Assembly (NCBI GenBank): GCA_951406725.2
Contig: OX597822.1
Coordinates: forward strand, 3,720,001 to 3,784,000
Direction: 5' to 3'
Length of the DNA stretch: 64,000 nt
Source of the DNA: Octopus vulgaris
Lineage: Eukaryota
The translations under genes and the position numbers were made by a program. The notes under the pieces are model-generated. The model was given only the letters and a program-made list of their open reading frames with translations. It was not told where the DNA came from and did no database searches. Shown here one piece after another: positions 54,989 through 56,899 of the stretch (position 1 is its first letter; each line of letters opens with the position of its first letter).

Positions 54989-55324
54989 CTGAGACCCGCT
55001 TCGGTCACGACGCTGACCATGGGATTGCATTTAGAAAGTTACCCTCCCAGACACAAGTCTGGGCAAGGTTGTTTATGGAAGACCAGCAGTCGCCCATGCA
55101 TACCGGCCTGTCCTCTCCATGCCATCAGTGTTATCCAAAGGAAAGGCAAGGCCCGATACAGCTTGGCACCTGTGACATCGCAACTCATTTCTACAACTGA
55201 GTGAACTGGAACAACGTGAAATAAAGTGTCTTGCTCAAGAACGCAACACATATCCCGGTCGGAGATTCAAGCTCACAACCTCGCGATCGTAAGCTCGACG
55301 CTCTAACCATTGAGCCATGCGCCG
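54989..55324 (-). mobile_element. tRNA-derived SINE family G
   Basis: Inverted homologue of 34748-35069. Confidence 0.88.
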
Positions 55325-55945: not shown

Positions 55946-56249
55946 TTTCAGTTCTATATTTAAGAGATGAGGAATTATGTACATTATTTACAATTGCCGA
56001 TATTTGTCCTCATCTTGTTTGTTGTTAACACAATGTTTCGGCTGATATACCTTCCAGCCTTCATCAGGTGTCTTGGAGAAATTTCGAAACTGGGTTCTCA
56101 TTCCTAAGGTATTTTTTGATGTTGTTGTTGTTATTATTATTATTATGATTATTATTATTATTATTATACAAGTCACCGCCTGGAATCGAACTCGGAATCC
56201 TGGAGTTAGAAGCCCGCGCTCTTAACCACTACGTCATATGTCCGTGGGC
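55946..56249 (-). mobile_element. Candidate SINE: tRNA-derived head, (TAA)n linker, hammerhead-ribozyme tail
   Basis: Head 56172-56249 with A-box tgacgtagtgg and B-box gagttcgattcc; HHR at 56027-56072 on the same strand; the 3' boundary is approximate. Confidence 0.7.
56027..56072 (-). ncRNA. Minimal type I hammerhead ribozyme
   Basis: GACAC CUGAUGA A GGCUG gaagguauau CAGCC GAAA CA UU|GUGUU: 5-bp stems I and II; stem III reads CA rather than CG (consistent with CpG decay). Confidence 0.78.
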
Positions 56250-56899
56250 ATTTGTATGCAATTCTGAATTGTTTTCTCTTTTTTTTTTCTTTTTTACTCT
56301 ACTTTCGTCAGTTGAACGAATTACAGTTTTAAAACAAACCGAAATATTTTTCGAATTGCAGATTTAAATTGTCTTTATGTAGCATATGTTATGCGAAAGC
56401 GCCTGAGTTATTGGTTAGTGTGCACGGGTTGCAAAAATAACGACGTCGGTTCAATTCTGGGGGAGACGGGGACTTTTGTTCTTGAGCAATGAACTTCATT
56501 TTTTGTTGTTCCCTTCTACTCTGATGTAATATATATCAGCCAGGGACCTAGGGCAACACTGCCTCCCTCTCAGTTGTTACAATATGGATTCTTCACTGAA
56601 TCTGGGGTGGCACGAGGCGAAAGGTTATCGATGTCTGCTCGCAACTACATACGTAAGTGAAAACTATTAGATAAGACGCGGAGCATGTTACCGCACCATA
56701 CCGAATGAAGAGTAACAATAGACTAGCTATTCCTCACGTTTTTCTACATACCTGAGTCAAAGGCAGTTCGATAGTGTAAATATACGTTTCCATACACACG
56801 TTCATTTACGTGTATGTAATTTTGAATGGGAGACAGACTGTCTTTCGCTTCAAAACTGCAGTTAATGAACTCTTCTGCCATTTTGTTTTTCCATTTGTG

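Follow-up and report, generated by a model that had tools for sequence, protein, structure and literature searches.

A tRNA-headed, hammerhead-bearing short repeat of Octopus vulgaris is the pseudo-LTR of an autonomous element, placed by its features among Penelope/Poseidon retrotransposons

The window studied here is a 64,000-nucleotide stretch of the Octopus vulgaris genome (contig OX597822.1, positions 3,720,001 to 3,784,000), and all positions below are counted from its first letter. On its minus strand, near position 56,000, it carries a repeat that unites a transfer RNA (tRNA)-like head with A and B boxes, a (TAA)n linker, a minimal hammerhead ribozyme and a tail. A sequence-only reading had proposed that this repeat is a short interspersed element (SINE) whose tail is the pseudo-long terminal repeat (pseudo-LTR) of a Penelope-like element (PLE), that is, an RNA polymerase III (Pol III) transcript that processes itself and is copied by a PLE reverse transcriptase (RT). 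The locus thus raises the question of whether a SINE has acquired a Penelope end, or whether the whole repeat belongs to a Penelope element. We find that the "SINE" is the own pseudo-LTR of an autonomous element, because head, linker, ribozyme and tail flank the open reading frame (ORF) of that element at both sides. To the fuller reading, in which the window element is a solo pseudo-LTR with a tRNA-type A/B-box promoter, likely copied by the RT of its own element from an RNA likely made by Pol III and started at the first base of the head, we assign a probability of about three in four.

The pseudo-LTR of an autonomous element

All parts of the repeat are present in the window on the strand and in the order first described. 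The genome (2.80 Gb in 227 contigs) was searched with the whole element as query, and each of the 40 scored matches was either a linked copy of head and tail at 85-93% identity or the window itself. Head-tail linkage, for which a genome-wide check had been suggested, is not unique to this locus: the tail is present in 26 of 28 loci ascertained by the head, and the head in 16 of 25 loci ascertained by the tail. Chance juxtaposition of the two is ruled out by these linked copies. An exact 22-mer of the tail occurs 11,095 times in the genome (0 for the control), tail matches have a mean identity of 94% to the majority sequence, and the linker varies between 8 and 284 nt in the 35 copies in which it was measured.

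Loci of the ORF were sought with a same-clade ORF piece from metagenome contigs as query, and the best 150 of 9,077 candidates were scored. Thirty loci, some of them duplicates of one another, were cut out for a count on the 3' side. In 26 of these the tRNA-like head lies 3' of an ORF for RT and a GIY-YIG endonuclease (EN), 22 nt past the stop codon and 160-480 nt (mostly 325-405) past the RT match, in most cases together with the tail. Three of the four headless exceptions represent one interrupted copy in a segmental duplication, and the candidate headless sister lineage (L337-L339) was dismissed as this single copy. On the other side, among 20 loci selected with the 5' part of the ORF (20 of 40 listed), 17 have the tail joined in frame to the ORF body, and in two of the loci (L369 and L375) the EN end, head, linker, tail and body follow one another consecutively.

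The unit is therefore composed of the ORF body, a 22-nt spacer past the stop, the head, (TAA)n, and the first 51 codons of an 835-codon RT and GIY-YIG ORF with the hammerhead inside them. The majority unit has 2,661 nt, and its reading frame runs open over 835 codons, beginning at an ATG 21 nt into the "tail". Since this ORF starts in the tail upstream of the ribozyme, the ribozyme lies within coding sequence. The "unique" 50 nt, ribozyme and tail together make up the first 51 codons. Another frame, from an ATG within the ribozyme core, was discarded as it stops after 25 codons. The description as a SINE with a PLE pseudo-LTR tail holds in so far as the head is of the tRNA type with Pol III boxes, the family is dispersed and its hammerhead is of the Penelope type, but the head is not a SINE-specific addition, for the autonomous element has an identical pseudo-LTR.

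The element protein combines an RT of the YVDD type with a C-terminal domain in which CxC lies between two motifs and His residues follow downstream. In the genomic copy L340 the match to RVT_1 (E 2.7e-6) stays just below the curated cut-off and the Pfam GIY-YIG model gives no score; a PDB search returned weak RT matches only. The C-terminal domain is assigned as a putative GIY-YIG-type EN on the basis of its motifs and of 32-37% matches to same-clade ORFs. With a Neptune-like RT/GIY-YIG protein encoded in this genome, the element protein shares 28% identity over 429 aa. According to Craig et al. 2021 (PMC8557442; here and below, statements on published systems refer to the available portions of the cited texts), a CX2-5CxxC linker between RT and EN marks Neptune/Nematis and not Penelope/Poseidon. 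This linker is absent in the element ORF and present in the Neptune-like protein P0001, and the RT segment resembles, by eye, the Poseidon row in the supplement of the same paper. Judged by these sequence features, the element would be an EN+ PLE of the Penelope/Poseidon clade. Neptune-like PLEs were also considered as the partner and rejected, as the 50 loci from the GIY-YIG search lack the common tail, apart from an unrelated insertion of a short copy and a match of 27 nt at E 0.009. The Neptune-like PLEs of this genome have their own U3-A8 hammerhead variant.

Insertion anatomy and the hammerhead

The anatomy of the insertions points to a Penelope enzyme. Head-to-head inverted pairs were found in 44 of 83 unique loci and, by eye, in 18 of 24 insertions picked by an exact 22-mer only, a pick that favours pairs. 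Among the first 100 genome matches, all 13 close pairs are head-to-head and none is tandem. Tail 3' ends are bimodal: of 131, 75 lie 0-3 nt from the long end and another 51 lie 24-40 nt away; the two 3' ends of short copies lie about 25-35 nt apart, and 40 of the 44 inverted pairs combine one long and one short end. Target site duplications (TSDs) have 10-13 bp. TSD-like flank matches (at least 12 nt with at most one mismatch) occur in 35 of 61 inverted insertions, compared with 0.8% of shuffled pairings; this comparison was made on the inverted class only, because the boundaries of apparent solo copies are often wrong where short inverted remnants remain. Inverted truncated copies and a one-sided tail of 30-40 bp are known as hallmarks of PLEs (Craig et al. 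2021, PMC8557442), and the tail was shown to span the sequence from one internal RT start site to the other (Frangieh et al. 2024, PMC11167929). Partial-tandem pseudo-LTRs, inverted 5'-truncated copies and a tail at one end, as in EN+ PLEs, are all observed in the octopus family. Copying by a Penelope RT, as first proposed, is thus borne out by the inverted pairs, the two 3' ends and the TSDs. Tandem head-to-tail hammerhead units, by which retrozymes are recognized, are limited to one clear array (L057) among the 83 loci. This array comprises three tails head-to-tail with TAA spacers and no head, in a retrozyme-like layout. In addition, a 9-nt repeat of the tail varies between 2 and 4 copies at long and short ends alike (e.g. 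L017, L037, L077, and L141), which suggests primer slippage at initiation.

The hammerhead shows the features of the minimal PLE class, namely a CUGANGA/GAAA core, an extra base before G10.1-C11.1, a palindromic vestigial stem III and covarying stems, as laid down by Cervera and de la Pena (PMC4209133), who found monomers to be inactive. Stems I and II covary across 21 chosen sequences of the subtype, with two-sided changes in 8 of 11 pairs and a covariation score of 0.61, as opposed to 0.18 in shuffled and 0.06-0.18 in slid alignments; the core and the first three pairs of stem II were fixed by the search pattern, and only the other 8 pairs are informative. Core and stem covariation, named beforehand as one way to check the motif, were thereby found, while the Rfam hammerhead model named alongside gives no score. 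Three common non-CpG variants of the ribozyme fall at N7 and in loop II, and a fourth, in stem I, may be inflated by the picking of loci. The C-A mismatch noticed in stem III of the window copy is real and represents CpG decay of the palindromic AACGTT, a G>A variant carried by 46 of 221 copies. In metagenome contigs, at least 119 loci contain a hammerhead of the same subtype, several of them downstream of Penelope/Poseidon-type ORFs. Many animal-derived families with covarying stems are included there (L171-L289); most of the loci have no ORF close by and may be solo pseudo-LTRs. A second same-core hammerhead family with another stem I was suspected in the octopus genome and dismissed, as all 20 matches proved to be mutated copies of the element family.

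None of 225 tail 3' ends falls at the predicted cut; of 48 internal 5' ends, 3 come within 3 nt, about as many as expected by chance. A further group of 16 tail-match ends, at 70 nt from the end, are probably self-matches of an internal palindrome. The ribozyme sets neither end of the element, contrary to the proposal that self-processing makes the ends. Furthermore, a cut would separate the promoter and the ATG from the priming region, and a self-processing step is therefore not supported. In our reading the hammerhead is inherited coding or ribonucleoprotein sequence whose monomer likely does not cut. In Poseidon of Anolis carolinensis (PAc), cleavage needed protein, insertion in vitro did not depend on it, and RNA-seq reads did not end at the cut (PMC11167929).

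The 5' edge of the head and transcription

Fifty-nine head-bearing copies were ascertained other than by their head; 40 of them start within -12..+12 at the edge of the head and 3 extend more than 30 nt upstream. Exact 22-24-mers counted across the genome gave 11,095 occurrences for the tail, 3,654 for the head, 922 at 43 nt upstream and 783 at a further 156 nt upstream, so that copy number drops about fourfold within 43 nt at the 5' edge of the head and is flat from there on. Retention of these k-mers in ORF-linked copies is 13/45 (tail), 9/45 (head), 17/47 and 17/49 (the two upstream points), and corrected estimates are ~38,000 tails, ~18,000 heads, and ~2,500 and ~2,300 copies upstream. By eye, the exact upstream motif stands beside 9 of the first 100 head matches. 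Pol III is expected to start approximately where this step lies. Because the step sits 14 nt before the consensus A-box, we infer that Pol III likely initiates at the first base of the head. RNA-seq of a related organism (3 runs of one study, ~6% of each run) revealed reads in both orientations, with depth that drops across the head edge to near nothing in the ORF body and mirrors copy number. Among indexed sequencing runs, those of six organisms contain the sequence, with no RNA run listed among them.

The sense strand of the 2,661-nt majority unit contains no run of four T (T4), compared with 30 on the antisense strand. The probability of this absence is 0.029 under a codon shuffle, 0.004 when synonymous codons are drawn by composition and 0.008 when bases are shuffled. 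In two Neptune ORFs from this genome, whose T content is similar, T4 runs number 9 and 8 (8 once the consensus step is applied there as well), and same-clade ORF pieces of other animals have 3, 3, 0 and 2 runs in 460-830 nt. Real copies of the element hold 43 T4 runs in 92.7 kb, with no T4 site in more than 3 copies. The absence of T4 is suggestive of Pol III read-through, and we consider it about equally probable that Pol III does or does not read through the whole ORF.

In the mechanism that we propose, Pol III would start at +1 of any intact head, meet no TTTT, and could continue across the ORF into the following pseudo-LTR and the flank. The RT/EN would nick both target strands ~10-13 bp apart, and the RT would prime internally at two sites, ~59 and ~84 nt past the ribozyme cut, in the manner seen in vitro for anole Poseidon (PMC11167929). 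Priming in the promoter-proximal pseudo-LTR, or in RNA of a solo copy, would run off the RNA 5' end after ~300 nt and yield SINE-like copies; priming in the distal pseudo-LTR would yield ORF-bearing ones; and two cDNAs joined head-to-head would produce inverted pairs with one long and one short end. Some amplification in trans from solo copies is likely, because they keep the promoter and the priming sites. In its widest form the proposal describes an autonomous Penelope transcribed by Pol III from a captured tRNA promoter, with an ORF (2.5 kb) purged of TTTT and with internal priming in the element's own 5' repeat as the source of a SINE-like family that numbers well over ten thousand; we give this form an even chance.

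Several observations weigh against the proposal. The unit was assembled from overlapping copies, and no single intact copy with an ORF between two pseudo-LTRs was seen. Roughly 15-25% of the copies with a head reach beyond its 5' edge, so that the start of some templates must lie further upstream, and the hairpin or palindrome that opens the head could itself stop or turn the RT. Absence of T4 weakens under Markov nulls (P 0.085 for order 1 and 0.24 for order 2), G4 runs are likewise absent (0 compared with 3.2 expected), and one of the four same-clade ORF pieces (L233, 603 nt) is also free of T4. Read ends, which had been predicted near 56032, do not pile up at the cut or at +1 in the RNA-seq of the related organism, although such libraries rarely show ends. 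Use of Pol III is predicted from sequence features and copy numbers, and the model does not account for the translation of an uncapped Pol III RNA. Finally, divergence is slightly lower in short copies (4.4%) than in ORF-linked ones (5.8%, P 0.003). This fits amplification from solo masters, but may also reflect ascertainment by exact k-mers and top matches.

The lower divergence, along with a ratio of ~7 to 1 between short and ORF-reaching copies and the presence of A and B boxes and both priming sites in every solo copy, could be accommodated by an independent tRNA SINE lineage with a Penelope tail that amplifies in trans, with the ORF element sharing its head through common origin or later recombination. 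We consider this unlikely, as the head has a fixed place on both sides of the ORF in the ORF-linked pseudo-LTR and no headless ORF lineage was found. Variants are also common to 39 ORF-linked and 182 short tails (e.g. N7 T>A in 9/38 and 21/179, respectively), and none of 20 variable tail positions cleanly separates the two classes (lowest P 0.047-0.055, uncorrected). A somewhat smaller chance is left to a tRNA-like head that is a passive old insertion in the 3' untranslated region (UTR), passed by read-through of RNA polymerase II (Pol II), with 5' ends piling up where the RT stalls or folds back at the head hairpin. Starts do cluster at +1 and +8, where the two arms of the head's 5' palindrome lie, the T4 absence is not significant under Markov nulls, and Penelope of Drosophila virilis uses a TATA-less, LINE-like pseudo-LTR promoter (PMC2377424; LINE, long interspersed element). 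This explanation is opposed by the position of the step, as a consensus A-box follows 14 nt further on and the spacing of the B-box is correct, and by a pseudo-LTR with little else that is promoter-like (22-nt spacer, head, TAA, and ORF start); moreover, a stall alone does not predict a T4-free ORF.

Least probable of all, in our estimate, is the model of Cervera and de la Pena applied to this family, in which hammerheads of tandem transcripts dimerise via their AACGUU palindromes, cut, and ligate a unit circle that serves as template, with short copies as abortive products. It agrees with the palindrome as family consensus, with the three common variants at N7 and loop II, and with the existence of partial tandems. 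A circle, however, has no 5' end at +1 of the head, copies neither end at the cut nor gather their 5' ends there, the ribozyme is also under coding constraint, and cleavage of the anole element was not needed in vitro (PMC11167929). The solo pseudo-LTR copied by the RT of its own element is the reading that we retain for the window copy.

The window copy, related systems and meaning

Features of the window copy are listed in Table 1. It is the sole match of a minimal-hammerhead motif scan on both strands of the whole window, in agreement with the single copy noticed before, and neither a TTTT between head and ribozyme nor a TSD is present, as also stated there. Its conserved 3' end lies 83 nt past the predicted cut. 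ARAGORN does not call a tRNA in the element, and the Rfam models for tRNA and hammerhead give no score on it; the two calls consequently rest on motifs and comparison. Both boxes were called with what we take to be the A- and B-box consensus, and the head seems to resemble tRNA-Arg, a possible source. RNase P processing at +8 of the head was considered and rejected, since the acceptor stem does not pair. Two further tRNA-like stretches were noted close by: a second, unrelated tRNA-headed SINE-like element on the minus strand at 55330-54990, ~600 nt downstream with an A-box near 55315, and, by eye, a stretch with A/B-box-like motifs on the plus strand at 56400-56475, ~150 nt upstream of the element.

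Table 1. Features of the solo pseudo-LTR in the window
Feature	Position	Strand	Remarks
Solo pseudo-LTR, SINE-like short copy of an autonomous retrotransposon, probably Penelope/Poseidon	55949..56250	-	88.6% match to the last ~290 nt of the 2.66-kb unit
tRNA-like head	56169..56250	-	56250 is the modal 5' end of the family and the predicted Pol III start, 14 nt 5' of the A-box
A-box	56226..56236	-	Single CpG change relative to the family TGGCGTAGTGG
B-box GAGTTCGATTCC	56182..56193	-	Motif match
(TAA/CAA)n linker	56122..56168	-	Variable; predicted 5' UTR; target of a TAA-inserting repeat
Start of the element ORF, ATG at 56101	56000..56101	-	88% match of 34 codons with the family N-terminus, followed by a frameshifting 1-nt deletion
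Minimal type I hammerhead motif in coding sequence	56027..56072	-	Predicted cut 56032/56031; stem III palindrome decayed CG>CA in this copy
Penelope "tail" stretch	55949..55973	-	Delimited by the short (about 55974-55984) and long (55949) 3' ends; would reflect two RT initiation sites

Among known systems, PAc (PMC11167929) is similar in having one ORF for RT plus a GIY-YIG domain at the C-terminus, with a start that overlaps the pseudo-LTR and hammerhead. Its two 3' ends are 30-40 nt apart, its last end lies about 85-92 nt past the cut (84 nt in the octopus element), and inverted and partial-tandem insertions are common to PAc, other Penelope/Poseidon PLEs and the octopus element. Unlike PAc, the octopus pseudo-LTR has a tRNA-type A/B-box head, a sharp 5' end and no sense-strand TTTT, and its ATG is positioned 5' of the ribozyme instead of inside stem II. 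Among 65 same-subtype hammerheads in contigs of other animals with at least 300 nt of sequence upstream, A and B boxes were found with 2; T-runs intervene and sister copies lack the boxes, and these loci were not accepted as the same architecture. Penelope of D. virilis (Schostak et al. 2008, PMC2377424) likewise has an internal pseudo-LTR promoter that drives the downstream tandem copy, and a 34-bp tail repeat at the ORF start. That promoter is TATA-less and LINE-like, with a DPE and a 75-bp intron, whereas the octopus element has A and B boxes followed by the ATG and no sign of an intron.

A tRNA-derived Pol III head with a type I hammerhead behind it is also found in the schistosome Sm-alpha and Sj-alpha elements (PMC2770079, PMC6765202, PMC8490949), whose copies number in the tens of thousands. 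The supposed novelty of the class is reduced by this precedent, and the pairing of tRNA head and hammerhead is not wholly new. The schistosome elements are often tandem and cut from multimers, and an autonomous partner is not named in the portions of text available. The octopus family differs in being dispersed, in ends not set by cleavage, in a minimal PLE-type ribozyme and in its identity with the pseudo-LTR of its partner. Non-LTR retrozymes (bioRxiv 10.64898/2026.07.22.740005) and non-autonomous Chlamys elements such as MRC1 (PMC8557442) are similar as short non-coding relatives of PLE pseudo-LTRs thought to use PLE enzymes; retrozymes are, however, defined by tandem hammerhead units, and the available texts mention no tRNA head. 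Cassandra, Helenus, and Ajax (Kojima 2024, PMC10886601) also carry small-RNA-derived sequence in a terminal repeat, but are non-autonomous LTR elements, whereas the octopus repeat is part of a PLE that is autonomous and codes for protein. A tRNA-derived promoter was not found for any PLE in full-text literature searches, a scope that leaves most subscription papers, Repbase and Dfam outside. An octopus repeat annotation (PMC13282606) and a paper on mollusc SINEs (PMC4758252) do not mention such an element in their available portions. The short form may nevertheless already have a name. It could be one of the octopus tRNA SINEs that we take to be called OK, OR1, and OR2 (from Ohshima and Okada 1994).

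Other repeats were observed in the course of this work. A repeat of at least 560 bp resides inside (TAA)n tracts, often in the linker of the octopus element, at 24 loci (e.g. L089:1640-2200, L080, L081, L045, L151, L291, L298, L365, and L373), with AAT repeats after 19 of 20 of its 3' ends; it is possibly the 3' end of a Dong/R4 LINE, a type that we take to target TAA. A young Neptune-like PLE family (L121:430-5672 in G000:C16, L095, and L097-L129) has a 781-residue frame and many near-identical copies, the U3-A8 hammerhead variant ~75 nt before the short end, a tail of ~35 nt, and a 359-residue frame upstream of the RT ORF. An inverted pair of another hammerhead-like motif with a long loop II (L099:208-454 and L129:3043-3289) adjoins a Neptune-like copy. 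Several Neptune-like PLE proteins (P0030, P0042, P0053, P0061, P0075, P0099, and P0113) are deposited under names of bacterial symbionts and are probably host DNA in symbiont assemblies.

SINEBase (PMC3531059) assigns Pol III to SINEs and Pol II to LTR elements and LINEs, and has SINEs copied by LINE RTs. With ~300 bp and only 51 codons of the ORF, the window copy has the size (<700 bp) and non-autonomy of a SINE as defined there; copying by the RT of a partner LINE does not apply, as the copies insert in the manner of a PLE and their sequence forms part of one. The family functions in a SINE-like way, but its tail variants do not mark out a separate lineage; A/B boxes, the 5' step and the T4 absence speak for Pol III transcription. 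If our reading is true, both pairings would be broken, since a Penelope RT would copy a SINE-like family and Pol III would possibly make an RT-coding RNA. SINE and partner would be one element, and the family would illustrate a direct birth of SINEs, in which internal priming turns a promoter-bearing repeat into a short mobile unit without a template switch from tRNA to tail. Tens of thousands of dated insertions would provide in vivo support for the two-site internal initiation seen in vitro for PAc, and they argue against the hammerhead as the feature that defines PLE ends. For the annotation of repeats, the consequence is that the element will be split into an "unclassified SINE" and a "Penelope".
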